From assembly GCA_964418095.1 (NCBI GenBank), contig CAYQKM010000001.1, positions 4,173-68,172 of the forward strand: a DNA stretch of 64,000 bases. Reading direction: 5' to 3'. The DNA comes from Candidatus Woesearchaeota archaeon (lineage in GTDB: Archaea; Nanobdellota; Nanobdellia; Pacearchaeales; GW2011-AR1). The notes beneath the pieces are model-generated. The model was not told where the DNA came from, ran no database searches, and saw only the letters and a list, made by a program, of their open reading frames with translations. A program made the translations under genes and the position numbers. Positions 11,176 through 47,533 of the stretch are shown piece after piece; within the stretch, counting starts at the first letter, position 1, and the number at the start of each line of letters is the position of its first letter.

Positions 11176-11269
11176 TTTTTGTATGTTTTTTATTATTTTA
11201 GTTTGCTAATTATTAAACTTGATAAAAATAGTTTTTAAACTTTACCCAAATAATTTAATTTGTTTAAGC

Positions 11270-21104: not shown

Positions 21105-21134
21105 CTCTAACCAGACTGAGCTACGGAGCCATAT
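21105..21134 (-). repeat. 30-bp direct repeat of the tRNA-Lys 5' half (acceptor plus D-arm), 40 bp upstream of the tRNA
   Basis: ctctaaccagactgagctacggagccatat at 21035-21064 is repeated exactly at 21105-21134. Confidence 0.8.
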
Positions 21135-29065: not shown

Positions 29066-29106
29066 AGCATAATAATCCTTAAATACTATTTCTTTGATAA
29101 AGCAAT

Positions 29107-29379
29107 ATGGAAGATAAAAACATACAAAACCTTGAAAGGCTTACAGAGAAATTTGGAAGAAAATATGATTTAATAGAGATTCAAGGACAGTCTGTTTATG
29201 GATGTACTTCTAAAGAAAGAAAATATTTAGGCCCATTAGCAGAGTATACAAGATACAAAAGACTAAAATTAAGATATAAGAGAGGTTTAGAACAAGATGG
29301 CTCTATTGAAGATAAAGATGAAAAAAGAGCTTACAAATTATTTCTAGAATCTTCAAGGTCTCGCAGAATTACTGAGTAG
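29107..29379 (+). CDS. hypothetical protein
   Basis: 90-aa charged ORF. Confidence 0.35.
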   Translation: MEDKNIQNLERLTEKFGRKYDLIEIQGQSVYGCTSKERKYLGPLAEYTRYKRLKLRYKRGLEQDGSIEDKDEKRAYKLFLESSRSRRITE

Positions 29380-29416
29380 ACCCAAAATTTAAAAATCTCA
29401 AATACCTCCTAACAGC

Positions 29417-29722
29417 ATGAATATTAAACCTACAAAAAAGAAAGTGATTTGGACACCTGTTATTGCTCTCACAATAAATATAATTGTTCCATTAATTAAC
29501 TGGCTTATTACAACAATAACCTGGCCTTTAGTAATGAAATATATAGAATCAAATCAAGTTGAAGGATTATTTCAACCTGCTTTAGTAACCTCACTTGTAA
29601 CCTATTTTATTTCTCCATTAAATATAGGGATTTTTGTAGTTGAAATAATTGTAATTTATTTTGTCTGGAGTTTATTCCAAAGAAAAAAACCAAAAATGCC
29701 TAAGACCCCTAAAAGAAAATAA
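29417..29722 (+). CDS. small membrane protein
   Basis: 101 aa, three hydrophobic helices, basic tail. Confidence 0.35.
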   Translation: MNIKPTKKKVIWTPVIALTINIIVPLINWLITTITWPLVMKYIESNQVEGLFQPALVTSLVTYFISPLNIGIFVVEIIVIYFVWSLFQRKKPKMPKTPKRK

Positions 29723-29761
29723 AGCATAACTCTTAAAAATAGTATCTTATATCTTTTAATT

Positions 29762-30283
29762 ATGGCTAAAAAATTACTTAAGCACACTACAGAAGATAGA
29801 GAGTACGGGAAAATAGATTTTTTCTATAGTCCAGATATGAAAAAAGACATAGAACTTAATGATGAAAAAGCACTGGATATTGTAGCTTGGACAACTGTGG
29901 AGGCTTTTATAGGAATGAATCAAGAATACAATAAACTAGTAGAAGCAAATGCAAAGAAGAATAATTTAGAAAAAATAGCAATATTAGCAGCACATGGAGG
30001 AGCTGAAAAAAATAAGTGGGTTTATTTTATTAATGAAGATGCAAAGTCAATGCAAAGATGGATAAGCAGCATTGATGGAAAATACAAAGCTATAATACTT
30101 TACTCGTGCAACCCTGGAAGAAACGAAGTGTACACAAGAAAAACACCTGTTATTGCCCCTAATGAAGATTTTTCTCATAAACTACTTAATCAAGGAAGAG
30201 TCCAGATAGAGATTGTCATGCCAAACACAGGGCATGTTGACTCCTATCTTCTCGAAGAAGAATTGAAAAGATTAGAGGAGTGA
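29762..30283 (+). CDS. hypothetical protein
   Basis: 173-aa ORF with no motif. Confidence 0.4.
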   Translation: MAKKLLKHTTEDREYGKIDFFYSPDMKKDIELNDEKALDIVAWTTVEAFIGMNQEYNKLVEANAKKNNLEKIAILAAHGGAEKNKWVYFINEDAKSMQRWISSIDGKYKAIILYSCNPGRNEVYTRKTPVIAPNEDFSHKLLNQGRVQIEIVMPNTGHVDSYLLEEELKRLEE

Positions 30284-30306
30284 GAAAAAATCTGATTATT
30301 TAAGAA

Positions 30307-31761
30307 TTACTTCAATAATTTTCCTAACTCTTCAAATCCATTTAATAATTCTTCAATTTCTTTTTTAGCTTCTTTTAGAATAACATTATTTTGCCTGTAA
30401 GTTATTTCAATCTCTTCTTCTTTTCTATATTTGTTAATAGATAAATCAAAATCATTAGATTTTATCTCTTCAATTGGGACAAAGAAATGTTTCTTAGTCC
30501 TATCTTCATTATCTTCTTTGTTTCTTTTTTCAAATCTTTCTAATATATCTGGAATATCATTCTTTTCAGGCTGGGGTATCCTTTTATCATCTAAACTATA
30601 ACCATCTGCTTCCATTTTATAGAACCAAACTTTTTCAGTAGGTTCGCCTTTTGTAAAAAATAGAACAGCAGTAGAAACTCCTGCATATGGTTTAAATACC
30701 CCCGAAGGCATAGATATAATAGCATCAAGCCTGCATTTTTCTAATAATAACTTTCTTATTGACTTGTGTGCCTTGGAATTACCAAATAAAACTCCATCCG
30801 GCACTATAACAGAACATCTTCCTCCCACAGATAAAGAATTATACATTAATTCTAAAAATAACAGTTCTGTTTTACTAGTGCTTATTGTAAATTCGTCTGA
30901 CTTTTCACTTTCATTTATAGATCCTTTGAATGGAGGATTAGCTAAAATTAAATCATATGTTCCATTTTCATTATATCTCTTGGATAATGTATCTTCTCCT
31001 TTAATTTGAGGATCAGTTATTCCGTGCATCATTAAATTCATAACCGCAATTCTAACCATTGTTCTATCAATATCATATCCATATAAAGATTCTTCATCTA
31101 ATATTTTCTTTTTTTGAGGGGTTAATGTGCTTACTCCATTTTTCTTGTTTCTATTCAAAATATACTCATAAGCATTAACTAAAAATCCAGCTGTTCCACA
31201 CGCAGGGTCTAATATTCTGTCTCCTAATTCTGGGTTTGCAAGTTCCACCATCATCTTAATTATATGCCTTGGAGTTCTGAATTGTCCATTTTTACCTGCA
31301 GTTGTTAGTTCAGATAGAAGGTACTCATAAATATCTCCTTGTGTATCCTGATTTTGTTCTTTAATATGTAAATCATTAATTATATTTACTGCTTCAATTA
31401 ATAAAGAAGCTGTTGGAAGAGAAAAACTTGCATCTTTCATGTATTTAGAATATAATGAATCTTTTTCTCCGAGTTCTCTCATAAATGGAAAGACAACATC
31501 TCTTACATGAGCTAGGATTCTATCAGAAGGCATCTCAGTCCAAACAGACCATCTGCAATTTTCATGTCCTGTAAATATAGAATTGAACTTAATGCCTTTT
31601 AATGTTGCATTTTGTTGCTCCAGAACATCTTTATCCTGCATTTTCTTCATGAAGATAAGATATGATATTTGCTCAATTGCCTGAAGAGGATTGCTAATGC
31701 CTCCGCTCCAGAATTTATCCCATAACTTGCGTATTTTTGATTTAAGGTCAGCATGTAACAT
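30307..31761 (-). CDS. hsdM: Type I restriction-modification system, M subunit (N6-adenine DNA methyltransferase)
   Basis: Motif I DPACGTAGFL and motif IV ILANPPFKG; 484 aa. Confidence 0.9.
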   Translation of the reverse strand: MLHADLKSKIRKLWDKFWSGGISNPLQAIEQISYLIFMKKMQDKDVLEQQNATLKGIKFNSIFTGHENCRWSVWTEMPSDRILAHVRDVVFPFMRELGEKDSLYSKYMKDASFSLPTASLLIEAVNIINDLHIKEQNQDTQGDIYEYLLSELTTAGKNGQFRTPRHIIKMMVELANPELGDRILDPACGTAGFLVNAYEYILNRNKKNGVSTLTPQKKKILDEESLYGYDIDRTMVRIAVMNLMMHGITDPQIKGEDTLSKRYNENGTYDLILANPPFKGSINESEKSDEFTISTSKTELLFLELMYNSLSVGGRCSVIVPDGVLFGNSKAHKSIRKLLLEKCRLDAIISMPSGVFKPYAGVSTAVLFFTKGEPTEKVWFYKMEADGYSLDDKRIPQPEKNDIPDILERFEKRNKEDNEDRTKKHFFVPIEEIKSNDFDLSINKYRKEEEIEITYRQNNVILKEAKKEIEELLNGFEELGKLLK

Positions 31762-31763
31762 GT

Positions 31764-32597
31764 TTATTGTTGTGAATCCTCCTTTTTAGATTTTTTTAGA
31801 AAGGTAAGATTTTCAAATAAATTAGTAAACTTATCAATTAGCCTTTCTTGTTTTTCTAGATTTATTTTAATATCTGTTTCTACTCTTTTTATGTTTGCTT
31901 TTGGAAAATTATAAAATTTGTCTCCACTATTTAAATGGATATATTCTTCATCTTGTTTAATTAGCCTACCAGTAAATTTTTTTTCATTTAAATCTATAAT
32001 TTTAACTTCATTATATTTAATTGTCTTTGCTGTATGAAGGACAATTATTTTATTTAGTGTTGGCAATAAACAGATTAAGATAAAAATACGGACTATCCAA
32101 TTATCAAAAAATAAAAAAATGTTTATAGAGATGAAGATAGTTAAGTATCCAATTATTAAAACAAATATTTGATTAGGCAAGGTCATGAAAAATTTCTTAA
32201 AGAACTGATTTAGTTTTGTTTTCGTTTTCAAATCTATTCCAAATTTTTTGATATTTCTCAAACACACCTCATAAAAATAGGAATCTTTTTTATTTCTTAT
32301 TATTTCAAAGATTTTCATTTTAATATACAAATAAAAATACAATAAACTATAAATTAACCAAAAAAGCAAAAATCCAACTATTGTTAAATTTAATTTTAAA
32401 TTAGGAAAATAATAAAAAAATAACAATGGGATTATGATGTATATTAAAAATAGGATAAAACCAATTATATAGTTAAGGCTCTTATTTTCTTTGGAGGGAT
32501 AAAAATCTAACACGACCTTGCCCAAATAAAATGAGAGAATTCCAGCTATACTGATAAACAATGTTATCCCTCCTGGGGTTAAATATTCTTCAATCAT
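31764..32597 (-). CDS. integral membrane protein (about 6 TM) with C-terminal soluble domain, embedded between hsdS and hsdM
   Basis: Highly hydrophobic N-terminal two-thirds. Gaps to neighbours are 2 nt upstream and 2 nt downstream, consistent with an operon. Confidence 0.5.
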   Translation of the reverse strand: MIEEYLTPGGITLFISIAGILSFYLGKVVLDFYPSKENKSLNYIIGFILFLIYIIIPLLFFYYFPNLKLNLTIVGFLLFWLIYSLLYFYLYIKMKIFEIIRNKKDSYFYEVCLRNIKKFGIDLKTKTKLNQFFKKFFMTLPNQIFVLIIGYLTIFISINIFLFFDNWIVRIFILICLLPTLNKIIVLHTAKTIKYNEVKIIDLNEKKFTGRLIKQDEEYIHLNSGDKFYNFPKANIKRVETDIKINLEKQERLIDKFTNLFENLTFLKKSKKEDSQQ

Positions 32598-32599
32598 CT

Positions 32600-33658
32600 C
32601 TACAACTCTCCTCTAAACGCCTTCTGCATCAAAGAATTAAATAATTCTTCAGAGTTTTGTTTAGTTTTATTAATATTTTCTTTCATCTTCTCAACTTGTT
32701 CAACAATTGAAGCAAATTTTTGCTGAAGGGAGAGAGGGACGTCTACGAAATCCATATTATAGATATCGTACCTGTTCAAACCAGGTATTGCAGTAGACCT
32801 GTCCAATTTTAAATTATATGATTTTAATAAATAATATAAAAAAATAAAATTTGTTCCCTTAAATGGAATTAGATAATAGGTAGTATCTATAGCCCAAAAA
32901 TCATCTTTAGAATAATTAACTTTTCCTATTGAACCTTTTCTTCCGATAACAATTCCCGGGCCTTTAATTAAAAACTTTGAATGATTTCCAACTACTCCGT
33001 TAGACCCATAAACAGAATATTTTCCACCATCTCTCTCTTTTTCGGGTAATCCTTTACCATATGCTAACTCAAACATTTCTTTTCCTTTTTTTCTCTCAAA
33101 TCCTTTATTATAAAACATCTCATAAAAAACACTCTTTAAATATTCATCAAGCAATTCCTCTGCCCTCTGCCCTCTTTCCCTTAGCTTTTCTGCTTTTTCT
33201 AAGATTGAAACAATTCTTTCTTGTTCTTTTAAGTCTGGAATACCGTTAGAGAAAGGAAGGGGGATTTTTATCTTAATCAAATAAGACTTTGAGAGGTGCT
33301 TTAAACCAGCCCCTTTAAATCCTTGTTCTAAAAGGTATATTCTTGATTTTAGTAGAAAATAGAGAAACTTTGCATTGTGGTCTACCACTCTTACCACAAA
33401 ACAATCATTGGAAGATGAGAAATTCTCATTACAATAATGCACCGCAGCCTTACCACCGGTTGACAGAATCAAATGTGCTCCTTCATAATCTGGATTGTCA
33501 ATAAATTTTGTCTGCTCTGGACTTGATGTAAAAAATTTGTACTTTCCTTCATCGAAGCCATCTCCGGCTTTTTTACCGCTTTTAGGCTCAAACGTTAATA
33601 TCTCCTTTAATTCAACTTCTTTCCATTCAATTTGATTAGTTTGTGTTTGTTGTGTCAT
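32600..33658 (-). CDS. hsdS: Type I restriction-modification system, S (specificity) subunit
   Basis: 352 aa; two target-recognition-like halves separated by a helical conserved region; position between hsdR and hsdM. Confidence 0.7.
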   Translation of the reverse strand: MTQQTQTNQIEWKEVELKEILTFEPKSGKKAGDGFDEGKYKFFTSSPEQTKFIDNPDYEGAHLILSTGGKAAVHYCNENFSSSNDCFVVRVVDHNAKFLYFLLKSRIYLLEQGFKGAGLKHLSKSYLIKIKIPLPFSNGIPDLKEQERIVSILEKAEKLRERGQRAEELLDEYLKSVFYEMFYNKGFERKKGKEMFELAYGKGLPEKERDGGKYSVYGSNGVVGNHSKFLIKGPGIVIGRKGSIGKVNYSKDDFWAIDTTYYLIPFKGTNFIFLYYLLKSYNLKLDRSTAIPGLNRYDIYNMDFVDVPLSLQQKFASIVEQVEKMKENINKTKQNSEELFNSLMQKAFRGEL

Positions 33659-33659
33659 T

Positions 33660-33965
33660 TTATTTGAAGATTAAAATTTTTAGTAAAATTGTTGAAATTG
33701 TGAATAATGAAAGAGGAACATGAAACTCAAAATTAAAAATCTTAAGATTGATAGTCCAAAAAATATTTTTTAATTTATCATCTGAAAATAATTCTATCAG
33801 ACCACCGCAAATTGCTGAAAAAACCAAGCCTATCCCCAAAGAAATAAATAGATTAGTTAAATTATCTATAGTTTTTATAGATAATCCCATCAAAGTTCCT
33901 ACTAATACAGTTAAAATTACTATGTAAATTAAAATCTGAAGAGATTTTTTAACACTCATTTTCAT
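33660..33965 (-). CDS. small integral membrane protein immediately upstream of hsdS
   Basis: 101 aa, three hydrophobic helices, 1-nt gap to hsdS. Confidence 0.4.
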   Translation of the reverse strand: MKMSVKKSLQILIYIVILTVLVGTLMGLSIKTIDNLTNLFISLGIGLVFSAICGGLIELFSDDKLKNIFWTINLKIFNFEFHVPLSLFTISTILLKILIFK

Positions 33966-34065
33966 TCTTCCATTCTCTCCTTGACTTTTATGTTTATTCT
34001 CTTACCTTTTTTCATTTTATCTTTCTCTCCGAAACATTTTTATAGTTCATCTTATTATATCTTTT

Positions 34066-34156
34066 GTAAGCGGGCCGGTTCCATAAAAGGTTTGATTATT
34101 CAAACTGACCAGCTCTTTATGAGTGTGATTGGTTGGGAAGACCGCTAATCGCTTAC
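34066..34156. ncRNA. GC-rich structured element (candidate small RNA or hairpin) between the small membrane ORF and ORF 34153..34659
   Basis: Terminal 7-bp inverted repeat gtaagcg...cgcttac closes about 90 nt. Contains an internal hairpin ggtttga-ttat-tcaaac and an ACA trinucleotide right after the stem. GC content is well above the local background. Confidence 0.3.
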
Positions 34157-34659
34157 ACTTTATTTTTTTTTAATTCCTCCCAATTTTGTTTTATAAGATT
34201 AAAGGTTATCTCTACTACATTCAATTTTCTCCCTCGAATTTGCTTGTTTAGTTTTAATGCTCTTCTTCTGTAAATCCCCGCGTAGTTATCTGCAAAAGAA
34301 CCTATATTCCTCCCAAGCCTTTTCCTAAATTCAGAAATATTTATTATTTCAAAATCAACTGGTTTCAATAATTGATTTAACACTTTCTTAACAATGTTAA
34401 AATCTTCATCATTACAGATAATTAATGTCTTTATATTTCTACGGACATTTTTAACAAGCAAGGAAATGCAAATAGCATAAAGTTTAGCTGAGTCTTCGTA
34501 AATATTTTTTTGAAATAATTTTCTTTTTATTAGTTTAACAAGATTCCCTCTTAGGGCACATCCATAATGTATCTCTTTATTTGTGCTAACTAAAGCAATT
34601 CCAATTGTTCTTTCTTCATAAATTCTTCCGCTCATATCAATATGAAAATCTTTTTTCAT
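34153..34659 (-). CDS. hypothetical protein between hsdR and hsdS
   Basis: 168-aa basic ORF with no recognisable motif. Confidence 0.4.
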   Translation of the reverse strand: MKKDFHIDMSGRIYEERTIGIALVSTNKEIHYGCALRGNLVKLIKRKLFQKNIYEDSAKLYAICISLLVKNVRRNIKTLIICNDEDFNIVKKVLNQLLKPVDFEIINISEFRKRLGRNIGSFADNYAGIYRRRALKLNKQIRGRKLNVVEITFNLIKQNWEELKKNKV

Positions 34660-34959
34660 TTCTCTTCCTCCAATCCGCTCTCCTTTCTAATCATCTCCCT
34701 AAGTTTTGTATTTATTGTCTTTCCTTCTTGCTCACAAATTTTTTTGAAAAAGAGAAATTCACTCATGTAAAGGCGAGTACCGACTACTTTACGCTCCTCA
34801 CCACTTAAAGGGTTATTTTTTAAAACCATAAAAAAAGGAAATATCCTATACTATTTAAAGATTTAGATAATTAACTGTTTACACTTTTTTTCACTTTTTG
34901 AGCAGATACAGTTCTTTTCTCTCTATCTAATGTACAAATACTAAAAGAGAATACAGATT

Positions 34960-37707
34960 TTATTTCCATTTTAATTTATTACACCTTTGTACAATTATCT
35001 CAAGCTGTTTTTTAGTGAAAATGTCTAATGGTCTTTTTTCTGCTAAAGGGTGTTCTGCAAAGCTCTTTAATTCAATATGTTTTGTCCTGATAAAGACTTG
35101 CTCTAAGAATCTCAAAAATTTAAGCTGTTCAGAATTATAGTGCTCGTTTTTATCTGCTACATATTTATCAAACTCCCATTTAATCATTTCTTGTGGATCT
35201 GGCAAATCTTTTATTTCTAATAATCCTCTTAAAAACACTATAAAATCTCTATCTCTTTGGATATTTTCAATAGTAAGAGTAGGGTTTAATTCTCTAAGCT
35301 GTTTTTCAATTTCTAAAAGTTCTTTAGAAGTAACCCCCTCCCCATCTTTAATTTTCTTTAGTAATTCATTACTATTTATGAAATATTCATAGTCTGGGCT
35401 TTCTTTTACTAGCATTATCTCTTTTTCAACCTTCAAAACAATATCAGGAGCATTAATTTCTACCATCTTTTCTCTGTCTGGTTCATAAAAAATCATCAAA
35501 GGAGCTATTTCCTTTATTAAGAAATCAACATCTTCAAAAGTAATTTCTTCCCAAAATGTTTCTTGTTTGATTCTTATTAAGTCTTTTTGCTTTTGCTTTA
35601 TTGTATCTAAGTTTTTATCCCAAATCAATTTTACTCTTTTAACTACAAATTCTTGTATTTTTCCTATTTCTTCTTTATTGTTTTCTTTAATATAACCAAA
35701 TAGTTTAATACATTTGGAGACAAAACCATAAACTTTAGAATTTTCAGAAGGCGCATAAATTAATAATGGGGAAATATCATCTCTTAATTCCTTAACATGC
35801 GCCTTTAAATCAAACTTAGAAGAGACAATCTTTTTAATCATCCCTTTTTTTTCAAGAACTAATGGAGAATTTAGATCAATATTTTTTATAGTATCTCTAA
35901 TTTGTTTTTCTATAACCTTTCTCTCTTTATCACCTAGCCTTTTTTCTAATGTATTTACTTGTTCTAAGAAAATTCTTGTCTTAGCATCTGTTTCAGGAGA
36001 TTTTTGTTTCAAATTATCTAATTTATGCATTAAAACATTAGACCAATCTCCAAATTTAAAGTCTAAAATTAAAAAATCTTCTTTTATGTGTTGCCCATCC
36101 TTATTAGTTGGAAGCCATTCTTTATATTTACAGGCAGAGATATTTCTTGTTCCTCTTCCAAGCATCTGCCAAAATCTTATTGGAGACATAACTGGTTTAA
36201 CAAAAACTAAATTCATTACTTCAGGTATATCTACCCCTGTATCTAAAACCCCTACAGATAAAGCAATCCTTGGACTATCTCTCTTTACAAATCTTTTTAC
36301 TTCATCCATGTAACGAGATTTATCTGAAGTAATTACCTTTACATCTTTAGATAAATTTGGATATAATTTATGAAAGAGTAGCTCTAATGCTTCTGCATGC
36401 TTTACACTAGCACAAAAGAATATACTTTTACATGGGCGATTGTCATCTGATTTGTAACATCTTTCAATAAATTCTCTAATTATTAATTCATTTGTTTTCT
36501 TATCAGTAAAAGATCTTTCAAACTTGGAACCAGGAGTTTGAAATTTTTCTGGTTCTCTTTCTTGCTCTTTTAATTTTTGTTGTAATTCTTTACTTAATTT
36601 TTTTCCTTCAATTCCTAGAGATAAAATCTTGGTTTCAATAATCTCTGAAACATAAGGAACTAGAACACCATCATTCACTGCATCCAAATAATCATACTTC
36701 ACTGTAGGTTTATTCTCATCACAATTAAATAGTTTAAATGTGTCTCTTGTTTCTATAGATGAAGGAGTTGCAGTTAACCCTATTTTAAGGGCATCAAAAT
36801 ATTTGAATATGTCATTATTTCTATCATAATAAGATCTATGAGCTTCGTCAAATATAATTAAATCAAATGCCCCTGTTCCAAACATCTCATAAAATTTACC
36901 TCTCGGTTTTTGAGAAGACATTAATGTTTGTATAGTAGATACATACAATCTAGCACTGCTAGAGTATCCTTCTACATTTAGCTCGCAAACAGGATCATCT
37001 GGAAAAAACTCTTTAAATCCATTTTCTTTAGCTTGATTCCCTAAAGAAATTCTATCAGTTACAAATAATACTTTTTGGACATAGTCTGCTTTTCTAAGAG
37101 CTTCAATAATTGCCATTGCAACTCTAGTTTTGCCTGTTCCTGTTGCCATATTAACCAATGCTTCCCTATGGCCTTTGGAAAAATGCTCTAACACTCCCTT
37201 TACAGCTTCTATACCTCTCATCCTATCAACAATTTTGGGGTTAATCTTAATATTAGATGGGTCTTTTTTCTTTTGCATTAACTCAACAATTCTATGCAAA
37301 TCTTTTTGAGAAAATGGCAGTTTTACCTGTCTCCTTCTATCTAAATCATCAACATAATACCATTTTTCTCCATTTGTTAAGAAAATAGGAATTTTTCTTT
37401 TAATTTGCTTTTCAATATCTTCTCTATATGTTCTTGCTTGTATCTCTCCATTTTCAACACCAACAGAAGTCTTTTTTGACTCTATTATTGCAAGTGGACT
37501 CCTATCATCATCTAAAAGTAAATAATCAATAAAATGATCTACTCCTTTTTCAATTCCTGCTTCACGACCTATATATTCTTTTGTGTTAAAATCAGATTTT
37601 ACAGAATTTACTTCTTCTTTTACATAACCTCCTCTAATTTTCCAACCTACTCTTTCTAAGACTGGGTCAATTAGATTTTTTCTTGTTTCTGCTTCTGATA
37701 AACTCAT
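34960..37707 (-). CDS. hsdR: Type I restriction enzyme, R subunit (SF2 helicase/endonuclease)
   Basis: N-terminal MSLSEAETRKNLIDPVLERVGW, Walker A MATGTGKT, DEAH box IIFDEAHRS; 915 aa. Confidence 0.9.
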   Translation of the reverse strand: MSLSEAETRKNLIDPVLERVGWKIRGGYVKEEVNSVKSDFNTKEYIGREAGIEKGVDHFIDYLLLDDDRSPLAIIESKKTSVGVENGEIQARTYREDIEKQIKRKIPIFLTNGEKWYYVDDLDRRRQVKLPFSQKDLHRIVELMQKKKDPSNIKINPKIVDRMRGIEAVKGVLEHFSKGHREALVNMATGTGKTRVAMAIIEALRKADYVQKVLFVTDRISLGNQAKENGFKEFFPDDPVCELNVEGYSSSARLYVSTIQTLMSSQKPRGKFYEMFGTGAFDLIIFDEAHRSYYDRNNDIFKYFDALKIGLTATPSSIETRDTFKLFNCDENKPTVKYDYLDAVNDGVLVPYVSEIIETKILSLGIEGKKLSKELQQKLKEQEREPEKFQTPGSKFERSFTDKKTNELIIREFIERCYKSDDNRPCKSIFFCASVKHAEALELLFHKLYPNLSKDVKVITSDKSRYMDEVKRFVKRDSPRIALSVGVLDTGVDIPEVMNLVFVKPVMSPIRFWQMLGRGTRNISACKYKEWLPTNKDGQHIKEDFLILDFKFGDWSNVLMHKLDNLKQKSPETDAKTRIFLEQVNTLEKRLGDKERKVIEKQIRDTIKNIDLNSPLVLEKKGMIKKIVSSKFDLKAHVKELRDDISPLLIYAPSENSKVYGFVSKCIKLFGYIKENNKEEIGKIQEFVVKRVKLIWDKNLDTIKQKQKDLIRIKQETFWEEITFEDVDFLIKEIAPLMIFYEPDREKMVEINAPDIVLKVEKEIMLVKESPDYEYFINSNELLKKIKDGEGVTSKELLEIEKQLRELNPTLTIENIQRDRDFIVFLRGLLEIKDLPDPQEMIKWEFDKYVADKNEHYNSEQLKFLRFLEQVFIRTKHIELKSFAEHPLAEKRPLDIFTKKQLEIIVQRCNKLKWK

Positions 37708-37755
37708 ACTATTATTACATTCTAGAAGTATAAAAGATTAACCTTTATTTATCCC

Positions 37756-38475
37756 TCATCTCTTTCTCTCCATCCAGCTCCAATAACGCTCTTTTCCGAT
37801 AACTACATGATCCAAAACAGTTATACCAATTGTTTTTCCAACTTCAATAAATCTTTTTGTTATATCTAAATCTTCTTGACTCGGTTCTGAATTTCCACTT
37901 GGATGGTTATGCACAAGTATAATTCGAGCCGCACTGTTTTTTATTGCAGGCTTGAAAACTTCTCTTGGATGAAGAATTGCTGAATCAAGTATGCCTTTAG
38001 AAATAAATTCCTTTTTTATTATATTGTTCTGATTATTCAATAATAAAATATAGAAATGTTCTTCTTTTTTATCTTTTAACTCTTCATGCATTAAATCAAA
38101 AACATCTTTTGCACAGGAAATCTTCTTTACAGGAGTTTTTGATTGATTTATTCTTCTTTGAATTTCTGCCATTGTTAGTATTTGCATTGCTTTGTTTTGC
38201 CCAATCCCTTTTATCTTTTGCAGCTCTATTAGTGAGCATTCAAAAAGCTTGCCTAAACCATATTCTTTAATCATCCTATTAGACATATCAATAGCATTTT
38301 CTCCGCCTTCATATTTTCCTTCTTTATTCTTTTTACCTCTTGTTCCTGTTCTCAGAATAATTGCAAAAAGCTCTGCATCACTTAATGCTTCTGGACCATA
38401 TTTAAGAAATCTTTCTCTTGGTCTATTTGAACTCGGAAGGTCCTTTATTTTCATAAAGAAAATAAGAAAAAACAA
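37756..38475 (-). CDS. radC: RadC-like JAB/MPN-domain protein
   Basis: JAMM motif HNHPSGNSEPSQED; N-terminal helix-hairpin-helix-like region; 239 aa. Confidence 0.8.
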   Translation of the reverse strand: MFFLIFFMKIKDLPSSNRPRERFLKYGPEALSDAELFAIILRTGTRGKKNKEGKYEGGENAIDMSNRMIKEYGLGKLFECSLIELQKIKGIGQNKAMQILTMAEIQRRINQSKTPVKKISCAKDVFDLMHEELKDKKEEHFYILLLNNQNNIIKKEFISKGILDSAILHPREVFKPAIKNSAARIILVHNHPSGNSEPSQEDLDITKRFIEVGKTIGITVLDHVVIGKERYWSWMERKR

Positions 38476-38479
38476 GTTT

Positions 38480-39394
38480 TTATTGATTTATGTTTATTGC
38501 TTCCTCACTTAAACCCTCTTTTTCATTTAGAGTATTTTTATTATTAATCATTTTTACAACTATGTCAACTTGATGTTGATTTAAAAAATGAGAATTGAAT
38601 GAAAACAATCCCTTGAATTCATCATTCATTAAATTAAATTTTGTCCTTCCATAATACCGAATGTCTAATAAACCAAAAACATGACCTGTTTCATGAGCCA
38701 AATTCCAACCTGTAAAATCAGAAATCCACGATTTTTCTTGACTAACTAAAGCAAAATTAAGTCCACATAATGATCCTCTTCCAGCATGTTTAGAGTTATT
38801 ATTATCCAAAAAAATTATGTTAGAGTTTTCTGTATTATCTACTAATTTACTTAAGATAATAGTATAATTCAAACATTCTTCTTCATTATTACCATTACCA
38901 AACAAAAAAAGAATCTCTTCTTGGGACAGATTAATATTTTTCTTTACAATTTGAGAGTATTCTATTGAAATATTATACTTTTCCCACACTTCTTTATTAT
39001 AATTTAAATAAGAATTAAGTTTTTTATCTTCAATTACATTATTTATAACATAGACATCAAATGAAATATTTTTTTCTTCAAAATTTACTCCTTGTGTCAT
39101 ATCATATTGTGCAAAGAAGATAACAGATAAAAATAGGCAGATAGTAGAGGTGAAGAAAAGTTTAGAAAACAACCAGAGAGGCCCCTTAAATTCTTTTTTA
39201 GTAAAATAATAGTACAAAAAAATTAATGCTGAACTCAAGATAATTGAAAAGGCAATCACTAATGGGTGTATTGTTTGATTTAAAAGAACAACAGATAAAA
39301 TAAAGATAAAAATGGATAATACAAAAATAAAAAAATCCAATGAAAAATAATCTATTTGTATATTATTATCACTTTTGTTTAATTTTCCTTTCAT
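38480..39394 (-). CDS. membrane-anchored zinc metalloprotease (HExxHxxGxxD type)
   Basis: N-terminal hydrophobic helices, then AHETGHVFGLLD zinc-binding motif. Confidence 0.55.
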   Translation of the reverse strand: MKGKLNKSDNNIQIDYFSLDFFIFVLSIFIFILSVVLLNQTIHPLVIAFSIILSSALIFLYYYFTKKEFKGPLWLFSKLFFTSTICLFLSVIFFAQYDMTQGVNFEEKNISFDVYVINNVIEDKKLNSYLNYNKEVWEKYNISIEYSQIVKKNINLSQEEILFLFGNGNNEEECLNYTIILSKLVDNTENSNIIFLDNNNSKHAGRGSLCGLNFALVSQEKSWISDFTGWNLAHETGHVFGLLDIRYYGRTKFNLMNDEFKGLFSFNSHFLNQHQVDIVVKMINNKNTLNEKEGLSEEAININQ

Positions 39395-39532: not shown

Positions 39533-39910
39533 TCACCTCACTATCCCTCCAGCCTTAATCCAGTCTTCTTTTTCCCTTTGAGCTAAAGATTTCTGCTGTT
39601 TCTGTTCTTTTTCTTCTTCAATTTTCTCTTTCTTTTCTTCTTTTTCTCTCTCTTCCTGAATTTTCTCCCAAATCTCAGGCTTAAGCTCTTTGAAAATAGT
39701 TTTGTATTCTTCTGGATATTCTCCTTCTAATGCTTTCATCTTATATCCTACACCTAATCCAAATTTCTTACCAAGAATATACTTTTCAATATAAATTAAA
39801 TCATCAATATATTCTTTATCTCTCTTCCAATCTGCTTTATTTAGCTTTTCCTTTATGAATTTTGATTTTACTTCTGTATATTTTCCCATTTTTCCATGTG
39901 TCCAAACCAT
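39533..39910 (-). CDS. hypothetical protein with Lys/Glu-rich C-terminus
   Basis: 125-aa ORF with a low-complexity EKKEKIEEEKEQ tail. Confidence 0.35.
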   Translation of the reverse strand: MVWTHGKMGKYTEVKSKFIKEKLNKADWKRDKEYIDDLIYIEKYILGKKFGLGVGYKMKALEGEYPEEYKTIFKELKPEIWEKIQEEREKEEKKEKIEEEKEQKQQKSLAQREKEDWIKAGGIVR

Positions 39911-40000
39911 TTATTCTAAATAAACCTCCCTTTTAAACATTTCTATTAAATAGTATAATTATATATTAACAAGTATAAAAATATATAAACAAAGCATATT

Positions 40001-40669
40001 TTGCATTTTTATGCAAAATTATATAAATCAAAAAAACTACCTCAATCCTATAAAGAGAGTGAATTTATGGGAAAAAAAATATTAATTGCAACAGTTTACA
40101 GCCCAGAGCCTGTGCTTTTAGCAGCTACAAGACTTGGACCAGATAGGATGATTCTTCTAACAGATAAAGAACAAAATAAAGAGCAAGACACCTCAGTCAA
40201 ACTTATCCAAAATTCATTAGGCAAAGTTATAGACATAAAAGTAATAAAAACAGACAATTACAATATAGTTGAAGTAGCTAAAAAAGTTGTTGAGATAATT
40301 GACATGCAACCTAATGATGACCACATTTTCATCAACATAACAAGTGGAAGAAAGACAAAAGCTATAGGACTTTTATTTGCAGCATATGCTAGACATGATA
40401 AAGTTAGTAAAATAGCATATAACCCTGAAGAAGATAAAAACAAAGTAATCTACTTACCCCGTCTAAGCTTTAAGCTCACAGAAAGTCAAAAAGCAATTCT
40501 AGAAGAAATAGATAAGCACCCAGGTTTAAGCATTGCAGATATCTCAAAAAAAGTTGAACTTTCAACAGCAATGCTCTATAGAGCAATAGGGGAATTAGAA
40601 GACCTGGATTTCATAAGTAAAGAAAACGGTTATGAATTAACTGATGCTGGAAGGATTGCGAGGTTATAA
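40001..40669 (+). CDS. Csa3-like transcriptional regulator: CARF (Rossmann-like sensor) domain plus C-terminal winged HTH
   Basis: N-terminal KKILIATVYSPEPV strand and CARF core motif HIFINITSGRKTKAIGLLFAAYA (N-x-T-x-G-x-K-T). C-terminal wHTH (LSIADISKKVELSTAMLYRAIGELEDLDFI). The ORF-track start is a TTG; the likelier start is the internal Met (MGKKILIATVY) near 40067. Confidence 0.65.
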   Translation: MHFYAKLYKSKKLPQSYKESEFMGKKILIATVYSPEPVLLAATRLGPDRMILLTDKEQNKEQDTSVKLIQNSLGKVIDIKVIKTDNYNIVEVAKKVVEIIDMQPNDDHIFINITSGRKTKAIGLLFAAYARHDKVSKIAYNPEEDKNKVIYLPRLSFKLTESQKAILEEIDKHPGLSIADISKKVELSTAMLYRAIGELEDLDFISKENGYELTDAGRIARL

Positions 40670-40714
40670 TATGAGAAATAAAAAAAATCTAAAGATGTTT
40701 AATACACAATAAAA

Positions 40715-43381
40715 ATGACAGACTTAAACTTTCTCAAAGATCTCAATGAGGAAAAGCAAAAGATAGCAAAAACAGATGGAAATGTTCTTGTTGTTGCAAA
40801 CCCTGGAACAGGAAAAACAATGCTTCTCGCCTACAAATTCATTTATCTATTAAAAAAAGAGATTAAGCCAGAAGAAATTCTTTGCTTAACATTCACAAAC
40901 AAAGCAAAAAGAGAACTTGAAGATAGAATAATCTCTCTAATAAAAAAATTAAATATGGACATAGACATCTCAAAGCTTAATGTCCATACATTCCACTCTT
41001 ACACTCTTGACTTTATGGAAGAAGAGAAAGTAGTCTCTTCAAACTTGCTTAGATACTCAATTTACCAATATCTAAAAGAATATGAGATACTAAATTATTC
41101 TGACGAATATTTACTAGAAACAATTGTCCCAAGAATGGAAAATCTTTTAAGATATTTAAAGAGTTTTGGAATCACCCCAGATAAAATTAATTTAAATGAA
41201 TCTAAAAAATTTATAGAAGAAGATGGAAAACTTACAAAACAAGAACTTGACAAATTTGCTGAACACTTTGTAGACATCTTCAAGTATTATGAAAAATCCA
41301 AAGAGAAAAAAGGAGTAGATTATTCAGATATGCTCATAAATTACTTAAATATAAATAACCCGTCAAAATTCAAGTATGTTCTTGTTGATGAGCTGCAAGA
41401 TGTAAATACAATTGAAGCAGATATAGCATTAAAATCAGGAGAAAATTTTGTTGCAGTAGGAGATAAAAAGCAAGCAATATTTGGCTTCCAAGGAGGCTCC
41501 ATACTAAACTTTGAGAAATTCAGTAACTCAACTAATTTTATACTATCAGACAATTTTAGAAGCACAAACGAAGTCCTTGATTACTCAAAAGAAGCATTCA
41601 CTTCAAAAACAAAAGACTCTGTCCATAAAGAAGATTTAAAGAATTTAAAAAATAGAGAAGCAAAACCTGCCCTTAAACCTAAAATTTACGAAGCTGAAAG
41701 AGAAAACACCTACAAAGTTGCTTCTGAATTAACTAGAAAACTATCCAGAGATTATAAGAAAGTTGCAATAATTGCAAGAACAAACTATCAAATAATGGAA
41801 ATGTCCAAAGAATTAAAAAATAGAGGAATAGAACATTCTTCTACTTTCTTCTCAGCCTCAGCAAATGCTAAAAATAAGATAATAGATTTCATTAAAGGAA
41901 TATTAAGCAGAGATGTGCAAATAATAAAGAACTCTATGTTTACCCCTTTCTTCCCATGCACAATACAAGAGGCTTTTAATATAGCTAATCAAAAAACAAA
42001 AACAATTGAAGATATTTACAGATTATGTCCAGAATTTAAAAAACTAAGAGAATCAATAAAAACAATTGAAGATTTAAACATTATATTCAAAGAAAGAATA
42101 ATTCCAATATCAATCAATTATGGAAAAGAGTTCCTACTGTCAGCACTAAATGTCCAAGAAGCATTAGGAGAGGCAATAAGGGTTATTGATGTTCTTAATA
42201 TGAAAAACATAATAGACTACTTAAGATCCTCAGACTTTTTAGTTGATGGGTCAGATGTTGAAAAACAAATAATCCTCACTACAGTTCACAAGGCAAAAGG
42301 CAAAGAGTATGATGCTGTAATTTACATTCCAAGTAAAACAAGAGACACTTCTAGTTTCCAAGATAAGATAGTTGAAGCAATCTTAAAATCTAAAGGAATA
42401 GATGCTAAAGAAGAGCTTGAAGAAGAAGCATTAAGAATAGATTTTGTTGCATTTACAAGGGCAAAAACAAAGCTTTGCATAGTTACAAATAAACTTGAAG
42501 AACACTTAAATAAATATGCAGAAGCAGACACAATACAAGTAGAATCCATTGAAAGCTCTAGTTTAAATGAAAAATCAAAAAGAGCATTTGATTTGTTTGT
42601 AAATGGAGAGTATGATAAAGCAAGAGAATTAATGGAAAATGACAAATCTTGGATAATCTCTTACATAAAAAACCATTTTGAGAATCTTCCACACATTTCT
42701 TTTTCAGGTCTTAATAATGACCCTTATGAGTATCTTATGTACAATATTTTAAACATAAAGAAATTTTCATCTTCATTAAGCATAGGAGGAGATGTTCATA
42801 AAATTGCGAGCCTTTTATGTGAAAATAAAAAATGTGAGGTGGAAGAAGAATACAAACCTTACAAAGAAAATATAGAAAAACTTCTTAAAGAAATAAAAAA
42901 ACAATATCCAGAACTTGATGAAGTAGAACAAGAAGTAAAAATACCACTCTCTAAAATTGTTGAAACCAAAGATGAAATTCTCTTTAAAGGATTTATTGAT
43001 GCAGTATTCAAAAACAAAGATAATTATCTAATAGTTGACTGGAAAACAGACAAGGAAATGAGGAGCGCTTCAGATCATAGACAGCAACTTGAAGCATATA
43101 GAAGAGCATTTTCTATTAAGAAAAACATCCCTTTAAACAAAATAAAAGTAGCTATAGGGTTTATTGGGTTAAGAAGAACAATAAACACTGGAACAATTGA
43201 AAGCACATTTGATGAAAAACAACCAGTTAAATCATCTTTTGAAACATTCACAAAAAAAGTAAATAAAATACTAGAATGGAAAAAGAATCCAGACTCCTTC
43301 TTCAAAGATTTAATGGAGAAAGAATCTGATGAAGATCTTTGGAGAGCTGTTGTAGAGCAATACAAGAAAGAAAATAATTAA
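40715..43381 (+). CDS. UvrD/PcrA-family SF1 helicase fused to a C-terminal RecB/Cas4-family (PD-(D/E)xK) nuclease domain, 888 aa
   Basis: Helicase motifs: I VVANPGTGKT, Ia LTFTNKA, II VDELQDV, III GDKKQAIFGFQGG, IV NFRST, VI TTVHKAKGKEYDAV. C-terminal nuclease motifs: GFIDAVFK ... LIVDWKTDK and QLEAYRRAF (QxxxY). Confidence 0.8.
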   Translation: MTDLNFLKDLNEEKQKIAKTDGNVLVVANPGTGKTMLLAYKFIYLLKKEIKPEEILCLTFTNKAKRELEDRIISLIKKLNMDIDISKLNVHTFHSYTLDFMEEEKVVSSNLLRYSIYQYLKEYEILNYSDEYLLETIVPRMENLLRYLKSFGITPDKINLNESKKFIEEDGKLTKQELDKFAEHFVDIFKYYEKSKEKKGVDYSDMLINYLNINNPSKFKYVLVDELQDVNTIEADIALKSGENFVAVGDKKQAIFGFQGGSILNFEKFSNSTNFILSDNFRSTNEVLDYSKEAFTSKTKDSVHKEDLKNLKNREAKPALKPKIYEAERENTYKVASELTRKLSRDYKKVAIIARTNYQIMEMSKELKNRGIEHSSTFFSASANAKNKIIDFIKGILSRDVQIIKNSMFTPFFPCTIQEAFNIANQKTKTIEDIYRLCPEFKKLRESIKTIEDLNIIFKERIIPISINYGKEFLLSALNVQEALGEAIRVIDVLNMKNIIDYLRSSDFLVDGSDVEKQIILTTVHKAKGKEYDAVIYIPSKTRDTSSFQDKIVEAILKSKGIDAKEELEEEALRIDFVAFTRAKTKLCIVTNKLEEHLNKYAEADTIQVESIESSSLNEKSKRAFDLFVNGEYDKARELMENDKSWIISYIKNHFENLPHISFSGLNNDPYEYLMYNILNIKKFSSSLSIGGDVHKIASLLCENKKCEVEEEYKPYKENIEKLLKEIKKQYPELDEVEQEVKIPLSKIVETKDEILFKGFIDAVFKNKDNYLIVDWKTDKEMRSASDHRQQLEAYRRAFSIKKNIPLNKIKVAIGFIGLRRTINTGTIESTFDEKQPVKSSFETFTKKVNKILEWKKNPDSFFKDLMEKESDEDLWRAVVEQYKKENN

Positions 43382-46046: not shown

Positions 46047-47207
46047 TTATCTAATAAGAGGGCTTATGCTCCTCAATTTTCTTACAACTTTAATTATTTT
46101 CTCAAGAAAATAATCTATTTCTTCTTCAGTTGTATATTTACTTATTGAGATTCTAAGAGAGCTATTAGAATGTAATGGTCCTAAACCGAGTGCTTTCAAA
46201 ACATGACTTGTTTGAAGAGTATTAGACATGCACGCACTTCCAGTTGAAGTGTAAATCTCTTCATTCTCTAAATACCCTCCAATAGCTTCTCCTTCAATAT
46301 TATTAAATGAAACATTAATATTATTACATAACCTTTTTTCTCCAACTGGCCCATTTAAATTAACATTCTCAATCTTCAACAATCCTTTAATCATCTTATC
46401 TCTTAAATCGCTCATTCTCTTAATGTCCTTTTTACTAACAATATCAACTGCTTTTGCAAATCCAACAATCCCAGGAATATTCTCTGTGCCACTTCTTAAT
46501 TTCCTTTCATGTCCCCCTCCATGTGCAAGAGGAGTAATCTCTACACCACTTCTAATATATAATGCACCAACACCTTTTGGACCATATATTTTATGTGCAT
46601 TTAAACTAACTAAATCTAAATTCTGTTTTTTAACATCTAAGAACACTTTTGTATAACTCTGACAAGCATCAGTATGAAATAATATGTTTTTCTCTTTACA
46701 CAATTTTCCAATTTCCTCAATATCTTGTATTGTTCCTATCTCATTATTGCCATGAATAATGCTTACTAAAAAAGTTTTATCTGTTATTTCTTTTTTAATA
46801 TCTTCAATATTAACAAATCCCTCTCTATCAACATCCAAATAAGTTACTTTTGCTCCTTGAGATTCTAACCATTTGCAAACATTTAATATTGAATCATGTT
46901 CTATCTTAGTTGTAATAATATGATTCTTTTGAGGATAATTTGAGAAAAATAAGCCTTTTAGTGCAAGATTATTTGACTCTGTTCCACCAGAAGTAAATAT
47001 AATCTCCCCAGAATTTGCTCTAATAGATTTAGCAATCTCTCTTCTACTTTTTTCAAGAACTTCTTTTGCTCTTATCCCTACATCATGCTGTGAAGAAGCA
47101 TTACCATATTTATCACTAAAATAAGGAAGCATTTCTTTTACAACCCTTTCATCAACTCTTGTTGTTGCTGCATTATCAAAATATATTTTGTTTTTCATTT
47201 TGAACAC
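46047..47207 (-). CDS. iscS: cysteine desulfurase (IscS/NifS family)
   Basis: N-terminal YFDNAATT, PLP-Lys context SLNAHKIYGPKG, active-site STGSACMS. Confidence 0.9.
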   Translation of the reverse strand: MFKMKNKIYFDNAATTRVDERVVKEMLPYFSDKYGNASSQHDVGIRAKEVLEKSRREIAKSIRANSGEIIFTSGGTESNNLALKGLFFSNYPQKNHIITTKIEHDSILNVCKWLESQGAKVTYLDVDREGFVNIEDIKKEITDKTFLVSIIHGNNEIGTIQDIEEIGKLCKEKNILFHTDACQSYTKVFLDVKKQNLDLVSLNAHKIYGPKGVGALYIRSGVEITPLAHGGGHERKLRSGTENIPGIVGFAKAVDIVSKKDIKRMSDLRDKMIKGLLKIENVNLNGPVGEKRLCNNINVSFNNIEGEAIGGYLENEEIYTSTGSACMSNTLQTSHVLKALGLGPLHSNSSLRISISKYTTEEEIDYFLEKIIKVVRKLRSISPLIR

Positions 47208-47533
47208 CCCTTACACTCTTTACAATTACAATAAGTCTTTGAATGTTTATCAATTAGTTTTAGCATTGGAATTATTGTATCTTTATTAAGAGAGTAAATT
47301 CTTTCTTTGCCTTTTTTTTCTACATTAACAAGATTGCATCTTCTCAATAAAGCCAATGCATGAGATACTTTGCTTTGCTCTACACCTAATTCAAAAGTTA
47401 AGTCTCCAACAGAACTTTTCTTTTCTTTAAGCACAGAAATTATCTTTATCTTAAGAGGATTTGCTAGGTTCCTAAAAAAAATATGATAAGTTGAAAAGTT
47501 TGAGATAATCTTGGGGTTTTTATTTTCTTTCAT
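47195..47533 (-). CDS. ArsR/SmtB-family wHTH regulator with C-terminal Cys cluster
   Basis: HTH region (VGDLTFELGVEQSKVSHALALLRR) and C-terminal CNCKECKGC; directly upstream of iscS with a 13-nt overlap. Confidence 0.55.
   Translation of the reverse strand: MKENKNPKIISNFSTYHIFFRNLANPLKIKIISVLKEKKSSVGDLTFELGVEQSKVSHALALLRRCNLVNVEKKGKERIYSLNKDTIIPMLKLIDKHSKTYCNCKECKGCSK

Follow-up and report, generated by a model that had tools for sequence, protein, structure and literature searches.

A Csa3-like regulator and its promoter cassette ahead of a UvrD helicase–RecB nuclease gene in a DPANN archaeon: a possible minimal form of a variable defence operon

Two co-directional open reading frames (ORFs) fill positions 40001–43381 of the + strand in a 64-kb stretch of DNA from a very small, symbiotic archaeon of the DPANN group; we refer to this stretch as the window, and negative results given for the window cover these 64 kb. 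The first gene encodes a Csa3-family regulator in which a CARF domain is followed by a winged helix-turn-helix (wHTH) domain, and the second encodes a single-chain UvrD-type helicase fused to a RecB-type nuclease. With confidence a little better than even, we read the locus, in a DPANN (Nanobdellota/Nanoarchaeota-type) archaeon, as a lineage-wide type of defence operon, Csa3-regulated and variable in its cargo, present here in its minimal form. We prefer a minimal form to an obligate two-gene system because the regulator and its promoter are constant while the cargo changes and the link to the helicase is specific to one clade. The conserved unit is the Csa3-like gene with its promoter cassette, which looks like a portable regulator of innate defence. 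An earlier note on this DNA had proposed a ligand-regulated pair of genes acting against mobile genetic elements; what it observed was confirmed, and its interpretation as a whole is partly supported.

The regulator and the helicase–nuclease

The longest form of the first ORF runs from a TTG at 40001 to 40669 (222 aa). Its true start is almost certainly the ATG at 40067 (40067–40669, + strand; 200 aa, beginning MGKKILIATVY): in the long form, the match to the PADLOC CARF3 profile sets in only at residue 25, a length of exactly 200 aa and an initial MGKK are shared by many orthologues, and the ATG is preceded by 66 nt that form part of a conserved promoter. Both profile and fold identify the product as a dimer-type CARF-wHTH protein of the Csa3 family, with the CARF domain at residues ~1–135 and the wHTH domain at residues ~138–200. 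It scores 77.1 bits against the NCBIfam model TIGR01884 (‘CRISPR-associated CARF protein Csa3’; cut-off 60.2) over model positions 25–202 of 202, and it matches CARF3 over its full length (2.2e-69), so the subfamily was already represented in PADLOC-DB v2.0.0 (2023). Pfam places HFX_2341_N and CARF_Card1 on the protein, both above cut-off, and HTH_24 (1.6e-8) and MarR (2.8e-7) on residues 159–208 of the long ORF; profile searches of the PDB match the wHTH part to Lrs14 and Lrp-type wHTH proteins.

The AlphaFold2 (AF2) model of the regulator, made with 31 homologues, has a predicted local distance difference test score (pLDDT) of 89.4 and a predicted template modelling score of 0.82, and shows beta-alpha alternation with five strands. 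The N-terminal Rossmann-like CARF fold, on which the earlier note had made its assignment depend, is thus present, and all of the top 43 Foldseek matches are CARF proteins. The best of these are the S. solfataricus Csa3 structures 2wte, 6wxq and 6w11 (apo and bound to cyclic tetra-adenylate, cA4), which align over the full length (E 1.6e-10), followed by Can2, Cam1, Csm6, Card1 and Cad1, each of these a CARF protein that binds cyclic oligoadenylates. At the sequence level, the sole CARF-protein relative in the PDB is the Can2-type 8bao (6.5e-6). The search for homologues returned 1012 proteins, the top 120 of which are 70–86% identical to the regulator. The core motif NITSGRKT, from which, together with the C-terminal wHTH, the Csa3 architecture had been proposed, is nearly invariant across the family (N90, T92, G94, R95, K96 and K98), as are both counterparts of the Csa3 pocket motifs, T9-h-Y11-S-P-E14 and I91-T-S-G94-R95-K96; the Gly-Phe pair and the Arg spacing of canonical Csa3 are not kept. 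Given the similarity of fold to cA4-bound Csa3, Can2 and Cam1, the pocket may hold a cA4-like ligand, whose turnover would be plausible in view of the conserved K96 and K98.

The second gene (40715–43381, + strand) encodes an 888-aa protein that combines a superfamily 1A (SF1A; UvrD/PcrA-type) helicase with a C-terminal PD-(D/E)xK nuclease of RecB type. The helicase motor spans residues 12–600 (40748–42514) and contains Walker A (GTGKT, residues 31–35) and DELQD; the nuclease core spans residues 723–823 (42881–43183) and contains GFID762, D775-W-K777 and Q791-x3-Y795. Pfam finds UvrD-helicase at residues 12–272 (1.7e-44), UvrD_C at 426–592 (1.3e-15) and PDDEXK_1 at 723–823 (2e-6). The complete UvrD motif set and the nuclease motifs pointed out in the earlier note are all there, and GTGKT, DELQD, motif III, GDKKQAIFGFQGG, D762, D775-W-K777 and Q791..Y795 are invariant in 20 homologues of 52–77% identity. 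That note had called the nuclease RecB/Cas4-type, of which the RecB part stands and the Cas4 part does not: on reading the sequence, we found no Cas4-style four-cysteine cluster in the 888-aa protein, and no cysteine after C57 is invariant in the 20 homologues. Among the top 120 homologues, those spanning the full query all carry PF00580 and PF12705; two C-terminally truncated homologues (P0017 and P0080) lack PF12705.

The AF2 model of this protein has a pLDDT of 82.5 overall and 87–95 over the nuclease core. Its full-length Foldseek matches are AddA (4ceh_A, 1e-22), RecB and AdnB, and UvrD, PcrA and Rep match the motor only. In sequence searches of the PDB the motor finds PcrA (9e-34), UvrD and Rep, and AddA at 8e-19, and hence lies nearer to PcrA; scores against the equivalog models are far below cut-off (addA_Gpos 79.5 vs 707.65; recB 92.1 vs 696; RecB-like 91.4 vs 650). 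The description of an AddA-like enzyme without a partner nearby has held up, in that no AddB, RecC, RecD or AdnA partner adjoins the gene in the window and none is consistent across the orthologous arrays. PADLOC assigns the helicase to no known defence system, yielding only generic motor matches (RTasHel and GajB), with no system-specific effector model and no GajA. Its viral relatives in IMG/VR are UvrD-like proteins at no more than 30% identity. The spacer between the two genes is 45 nt long, and no terminator-like site was found on the + strand in a scan with sigma-70 promoter and intrinsic terminator models, which are uninformative for an archaeon.

The nearest relatives are metagenome-assembled Nanobdellota/Nanoarchaeota (DPANN) archaea. 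Close homologues of both proteins also occur in bins where they would not be expected, namely Paceibacterota (L006), Leptospiraceae (P0108) and ‘Methanosarcinales’ (L002, L007 and L011), which points to mis-binned DPANN contigs or to horizontal transfer.

A constant promoter and a changing cargo

About 130 bp 5′ of the CARF gene are conserved as DNA across 20 non-redundant orthologous loci (CARF proteins 54–83% identical), whatever gene lies on the far side. The first conserved block, box A/A′ (TTTTAAACATTTCTAT then AGTATAAT; 39931–39959), resembles a B recognition element plus TATA box (BRE/TATA) on the − strand, facing the divergent gene, and has the consensus TtTaTAaA-N-aTTTCTAt..tttaGTAtAAtt over the 20 loci. 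Box B (AGTATAAAAATATATAAA; 39972–39989, + strand; consensus tAgAAA-N2-taTAtAAA) is likewise BRE/TATA-like and falls within a 20-nt-period repeat that Tandem Repeats Finder (TRF) detects at 39944–39998. Box C (ATGCAAAATTATATAAA; 40011–40027, + strand) is the proximal BRE/TATA-like element, 40 nt before the start codon. Its consensus, ATGGAAA-N-tTaTATAAA (ATGGAAA-N-TTATATAAA), is the best-conserved block of all and lies ~40–60 nt before the start codon in the 20 loci.

Overlapping box C is an inverted repeat, ATTTTGCAT-TTTT-ATGCAAAAT, whose arms lie at 39998–40006 and 40011–40019 around a 4-nt loop and which is a candidate operator for a dimeric wHTH protein; in the window, its right arm is the ATG(G/C)AAA element of box C. 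An inverted repeat of 11 bp had been reported here; the repeat is real, but its perfect arms measure 9 bp. It exceeds chance: counting perfect inverted repeats with arms of 9 bp or more and loops no longer than 12 nt, the 64 kb contain 18, and 2 of these lie inside the 157-bp upstream region, where 0.044 would be expected. In orthologues, the corresponding place is taken by short palindromes (TTTCC-TAT-GGAAA, TCCATATGGA, CCATATGG, TTCCAT-n5-ATGGAA and CTTTCC-n5-GGAAAG). From these sequence features we infer that the palindrome may serve as an autoregulatory operator overlapping the proximal promoter; Csa3a has been proposed to recognise palindromic sites adjoining BRE/TATA (PMC8699464).

Two broader interpretations of these elements were rejected. 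The boxes do not represent a generic promoter consensus of the genome, as GAAANTTATATAAA at one mismatch gives 2 matches against 1.74 expected. Nor do they mark a dispersed regulon: the palindrome has no further copy in the window even at 3 mismatches, and box A has one exact match there, its two 2-mismatch matches looking like chance.

What follows this promoter was surveyed in a CARF-side set of 18 independent arrays, drawn from 11 species genomes and annotated contigs. The CARF gene comes first in every array that has co-directional downstream genes (all 11 genome loci and all further CARF-side loci), and in 13 of 21 distinct junctions the first cargo gene starts −4 to +4 nt from the CARF stop codon, irrespective of the cargo family. 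The cargo is of defence type and differs in almost every array: an MmeI-like type IIG enzyme with Endonuc_Holl (L022); GmrSD with DUF2779 and Bro-N in one further array; DUF2130 and others (L016); a PDDEXK_1 nuclease and a type I restriction-modification (R-M) system with a MORC-like ATPase (L135); GIY-YIG, PDDEXK_1, HAD, MazG and an SLFN-type helicase (L134); a NucS-like nuclease (L001); and a DUF4268-containing array (L002). Overall, the cargo types also include McrBC, AbiU, Hhe/PDC-S37, PLD, DUF1016/YhcG and PDDEXK_4, and many cargo genes have no family assignment. A UvrD–nuclease is the most frequent cargo, found downstream in 5 of the 18 arrays if any subfamily is counted and in 2 if only the orthologous subfamily is; in the window it is the sole cargo. 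A Csa3-like gene without cas genes is no oddity of this locus; it is the norm for this DPANN subfamily, though in one Micrarchaeota genome (L005:10621–18929) the CARF-wHTH orthologue is followed, as the head of the operon, by type I-B cas genes (cas6, cas7b, cas5b and cas3b).

Several observations were made on these arrays in passing. The L005 operon contains, between cas6 and a putative large subunit, a 438-aa protein with weak matches to models of the N-terminal domain associated with prokaryotic Argonaute and SIR2 proteins. One cargo family without a Pfam match (f3; ~135–160 aa) occurs in 8 loci, on the cargo side of L025, L004 and L016–L021, and the L013 region (10995–11576) encodes a 193-aa protein that also has no Pfam match; the D...(D/E)xK-like patterns that can be picked out by eye (e.g. 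VDIVIV...LDVKG) suggest that both could be further small PD-(D/E)xK nucleases. On the divergent side of the CARF gene, the most frequent neighbour (12 loci) is a double-AAA+ ATPase of ~450–520 aa with an nSTAND3-like first P-loop, which was seen at L025, L002, L022–L024, L003, L007, L067, L030, L032, L073, L012 and L136 and has no counterpart in the window; it may be either a second conserved component or a mobile-element gene. At L136, it heads a minus-strand array that carries MCM_OB and many small ORFs, with a 1070-aa UvrD-PDDEXK protein at its end.

When the survey starts from the helicase, the CARF gene is the only strongly recurrent neighbour in 37 loci whose helicases are at least 45% identical to the window protein; it is present at 12 of them, and the next family reaches 5. 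When only helicase-retrieved loci with enough upstream sequence are counted, a CARF gene lies upstream on the same strand of 10 of the 13 helicases at least ~53.7% identical to the window protein vs none of ~10 more distant ones (Fisher p 5e-4 to 3e-3, computed at a 54% cut-off). Direct adjacency is rare, being confined to the window (45 nt) and L067 (12 nt). The other CARF–helicase gaps measure 627–6353 bp and usually hold one to five other defence genes: DUF5677 in the closest relative (L012, where AbiU follows the helicase); DUF2130 in L105, where an Hhe/PDC-S37-like helicase and a type I R-M system follow; GmrSD in L030 and L106; RhuM, then 496-aa and 184-aa proteins without annotation, then McrB and McrC in L085; a PLD nuclease in L062; and two DUF1016/YhcG nucleases with one unannotated 248-aa gene in L009. 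Of the linkage that the earlier note had drawn between the two genes, the non-random association therefore survives and the adjacency does not generalise; a discrete two-gene module is contradicted by the 0.6–6.4 kb of defence genes that usually separate the two and by the low share of CARF arrays with any UvrD–nuclease.

The pairwise divergences of the CARF and helicase genes are only weakly to moderately correlated (Mantel r 0.47, p ~0.005); with a Spearman coefficient of 0.26 that is not significant, we rejected strict co-evolution of the two. A model in which the CARF gene and the helicase gene form fixed borders of a hotspot was rejected as well, as defence genes often run on past the helicase.

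The surrounding window

The genome has a G+C content of ~30%, and base composition is even along the island. The rest of the defence island extends over 28640–38475 on the − strand, apart from an Endonuc_Holl-like gene on the + strand (28640–29065). As the earlier note had said, the setting is one of R-M genes: Pfam identifies hsdM of a type I system (30307–31761), hsdS (32600–33658), hsdR (34960–37707) and a RadC-like JAB protein (37756–38475), all upstream of the CARF gene and all on the − strand. Between hsdM and hsdS lies a 277-aa ORF (31764–32597, − strand) without a Pfam or PADLOC match; in the equivalent position L105 has a 156-aa gene and L135 the MORC-like ATPase. The RadC-like gene is adjoined by a gene for a 304-aa protein (38480–39394, − strand) whose Pfam match is sub-threshold only and whose sequence reveals an HExxH motif (AHETGHVFGL) and hydrophobic N-terminal segments. 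The gene divergent from the CARF gene (39533–39910, − strand) encodes a 125-aa lysine- and glutamate-rich protein (family f14) with no Pfam or PADLOC match, homologues of which lie near the CARF gene in L003, L008 and L096. On the 3′ side of the helicase gene, convergent housekeeping genes begin (histidine phosphatase, NifU and NifS).

The reported lack of cas genes and of a CRISPR array was borne out: TRF finds no CRISPR-like array in the window, and PADLOC finds no Cas10, CD-NTase or cas gene among the other 47 window ORFs of at least 110 aa. A second PADLOC ‘Csa3’ match in the window was rejected as a further Csa3. It is a 112-aa ArsR-type wHTH protein (47195–47533, − strand), matched in its HTH part only and without a CARF domain, which could be mis-annotated as Csa3 for that reason; its gene overlaps the start of a NifS-like cysteine desulfurase gene (46047–47207), and it is probably an Fe-S or metal regulator. 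The window contains no att-like repeats of three tRNAs around the island, no long direct flanking repeats and no homologue of the recurrent AAA+ ATPase.

Other features of the window lie farther from the locus. At its edge, an SMC_N-type ATPase gene (106–1542, + strand; PADLOC mad3 5.5e-30, LmuB-like) is followed by a gene for a 208-aa protein (1707–2333, + strand; mad2, 1.7e-19), and a further window ORF matches mad8; the genes at 106–2333 may belong to a MADS-like or Lamassu-like defence system of which the window covers only a fragment. An Rfam scan of the window returned tRNAs only. ARAGORN calls a tRNA-Tyr of 92 nt, a size compatible with an intron, at 13480–13571 (+ strand), where the Rfam tRNA model is silent at the gathering threshold. 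A ~22-nt repeat of the tRNA-Lys body at 21105–21127, 45 nt past the tRNA-Lys gene, may represent a second tRNA gene that was not called, or a fragment of a tRNA.

Mechanism, alternatives and relation to known systems

In the mechanism that we propose, the Csa3-like dimer would bind the palindromic operator over its own BRE/TATA element (box C) and so set transcription of itself and of the downstream cargo. A nucleotide-derived ligand in the CARF pocket would shift the wHTH domains and thereby turn the operon on or off when the cell is infected or its DNA is under stress; in Csa3a, binding of cA4 in the CARF dimer pocket moves the wHTH domains (PMC8699464). The helicase–nuclease would load on DNA ends or nicks, such as those made by the neighbouring type I R-M system or by the type IV enzymes that intervene in relatives, unwind in the 3′-5′ direction and degrade foreign DNA. 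It would thereby act as a one-polypeptide counterpart of post-restriction degradation by RecBCD or AddAB, in organisms without those complexes.

Several points weigh against this reading, in which regulation, ligand and the effector role of the enzyme are all things that we infer. The pocket motifs of the regulator, T-h-Y-S-P-E and I-T-S-G-R-K, replace the canonical Csa3 motifs T-h-G-F-(N/D)-E-x4-R and L-x2-G-h-R (PMC8699464), and S. solfataricus Csa3 is missing from the sequence-level PDB matches of the regulator. The palindrome is weak evidence for an operator because, in vitro, the binding of S. solfataricus Csa3a to its own candidate palindrome was non-specific (PMC8699464), and since searches of the rest of the window did not turn up the operator motifs, nothing shows that the adjacent R-M genes are under the same control. 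Two arrays (L136 and L137) consist of a solo CARF gene without cargo, one of them amid housekeeping genes, which would allow for an action of the protein in trans, either in addition or exclusively. Both proteins are unusually conserved for defence genes (CARF 70–86% and helicase 52–87% identity, with more than 100 clusters each), which would also fit housekeeping roles. Finally, these archaea are mostly without type III CRISPR; with no Cas10 or CD-NTase in the window and CRISPR-Cas under-represented in DPANN archaea (PMC12988326), the presumed cA4-like signal has no known source.

The strongest competing explanation, to which we give perhaps a fifth of the weight, is that the UvrD–RecB nuclease does housekeeping work in DNA-end resection or repair, that the CARF-wHTH protein regulates the response to stress or DNA damage, and that the site simply tolerates insertions, so that defence genes gather there. 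The high, collinear conservation of both proteins over hundreds of clusters in several archaeal phyla would suit such a role, as would the many unrelated contexts in which the helicase occurs without a CARF gene, the solo CARF gene in a housekeeping neighbourhood and the fold shared with the repair enzymes AddA, RecB and AdnB; the title of Liu et al. (2017), as cited in PMC5704561, moreover has Csa3a activating DNA-repair genes along with CRISPR. However, the genes joined to the CARF stop codon are overwhelmingly restriction, abortive infection or cas genes rather than repair genes, the −4 to +4 nt junctions argue for deliberate co-expression over passive insertion, the window neighbours are type I R-M and RadC genes, and a reading of the fusion clade as ancillary to defence was reached from independent contexts in PMC5704561. 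That the juxtaposition is mere chance is scarcely credible: defence genes do cluster generally and the window offers one instance only, but co-orientation in 12 independent loci, specific to a clade, is far above the <1% expected for a single-copy gene within 7 kb, and recurrence at 12 of 37 helicase loci effectively refutes this explanation.

We regard as improbable an obligate two-gene system against mobile genetic elements in which a cyclic-oligonucleotide-sensing regulator controls this one helicase–nuclease effector. The immediate adjacency in the window and L067, the strong linkage in the nearest helicase clade, and an intact CARF pocket in a fold that matches cA4-binding proteins are what such a system would predict, but the two genes usually stand apart with 627–6353 bp of defence genes between them, 13 of the 18 CARF-headed arrays contain no UvrD–nuclease of any kind, most helicase homologues have no CARF gene, and no synthase was found in the window. 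Equally improbable in our estimate is that the CARF-wHTH gene and its bidirectional promoter are the switch of an integrated DPANN plasmid or provirus, with the downstream slot as its cargo hotspot. This idea draws on the mirror-image promoter boxes, which recall a genetic switch, on the variation of both flanks of the CARF cassette between genomes, and on the double-AAA+/nSTAND3 ATPase (12 loci), MCM/MCM_OB, runs of small ORFs, TraC-like genes, integrases and transposases that the divergent side carries elsewhere, and it keeps its low weight only because of features at other loci. Beside the locus, the window has no such ATPase, MCM or integrase; it also has no att-like repeats, base composition does not change across the island, and one solo CARF copy sits amid ordinary housekeeping genes; the CARF family is also nearly absent from viruses, with one match in 2.9 million IMG/VR contigs, on a contig binned as a giant-virus metagenome-assembled genome and probably mis-binned.

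Nearly everything understood about CARF sensors concerns the reception of cyclic oligoadenylates made by Cas10. Going beyond the Csa3-regulated variable operon that we favour, one could imagine a CRISPR-independent CARF circuit in DPANN archaea without Cas10, in which the cassette would sense a nucleotide messenger from a source other than Cas10 and switch on a captured innate defence module, the UvrD–RecB nuclease being its commonest partner. The messenger might come from an unrecognised cyclase, from degradation products of the associated nucleases, or from the type III CRISPR system of a host archaeon, whose cyclic oligoadenylates would be passed to the episymbiont. We consider such a circuit unlikely, though less so than the obligate pair or the mobile-element switch. 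Here, in archaea in which CRISPR-Cas is under-represented, a sensor-regulator of Csa3 type ranks with the most conserved genes of a defence locus. If the proposed regulation is true, the cassette would be for archaea what the ligand-sensing regulators at the head of defence islands are for bacteria, it would raise the question of what the ligand is and what makes it in a cell without Cas10, and the Csa3 gene with its promoter boxes could serve as an anchor for mining new defence genes in DPANN metagenomes. The arrays also offer a likely physiological setting for the large family of UvrD–RecB nuclease fusions.

The closest known relatives of the regulator are Csa3a and Csa3b of the Sulfolobales, which regulate type I-A CRISPR-Cas (PDB 2WTE, 6WXQ and 6W11). 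The two-domain architecture and full-length fold are the same, the curated profile is passed, a palindromic element adjoins BRE/TATA (compare CAPPa, PMC8699464), and the L005 orthologue heads a type I-B cas operon. However, identity in the structural alignment is only 11–13% and there is no match to Csa3 at the level of PDB sequences; the pocket motifs differ from those of Csa3, and the second resembles that of Can2 (NISGGTKS). The window also has no CRISPR-Cas locus, and the regulator here is promoter-proximal in operons with many non-CRISPR cargos, in DPANN archaea.

For the enzyme, the nearest described group is the UvrD–Cas4-like (PF12705) fusion clade of Hudaiberdiev et al. (2017; PMC5704561), which has the same combination of SF1 UvrD-like helicase and C-terminal PF12705 nuclease. 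That clade, found in bacteria and mesophilic archaea and in type III R-M and Dcm/Vsr neighbourhoods, was proposed to be an ancillary defence component. No Csa3/CARF association is reported there and the archaeal contexts are described as stand-alone or non-conserved, whereas we find a clade-specific link to a Csa3-like gene; the window helicase lacks the C-terminal cysteine cluster of distant CARF-linked members (L003, L008 and L013), which end in C-x2-C-x5-C motifs. AddA, RecB and AdnB are the best full-length structural matches and share the order of SF1A motor and RecB nuclease as well as the catalytic motifs, but the 888-aa protein is ~300 residues shorter, has a motor nearer to PcrA/UvrD, falls below the equivalog cut-offs and has no partner. 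With Gabija GajB, Druantia DruE and Hhe it shares the idea that immunity can pair a helicase powered by ATP with the breakdown of DNA (for DruE, bioRxiv 10.64898/2026.05.13.724313); it differs in having no full PADLOC system match and no GajA or DruH partner, and in carrying its nuclease fused in cis.

In bacteria, WYL-domain regulators of the BrxR/CapW type combine a ligand sensor with an HTH domain, head diverse defence systems and are presumably autoregulated. The cassette described here differs from them in having a CARF rather than a WYL fold and an archaeal promoter architecture, and in belonging to another lineage. That CARF and WYL domains may sense ligands in the regulation of defence is a general idea put forward in PMC4012209, where CARF genes outside CRISPR loci were also noted in general terms in 2014; a survey of archaeal immunity (PMC12988326) makes no mention of the present module. 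What is apparently new is a strongly conserved Csa3-type regulator–promoter cassette that, in organisms for the most part without the known source of CARF ligands, is start–stop-coupled to interchangeable innate modules, with the UvrD–RecB nuclease as a clade-specific partner, its contexts being possibly covered in the 2020 CARF classification (Makarova et al., NAR).

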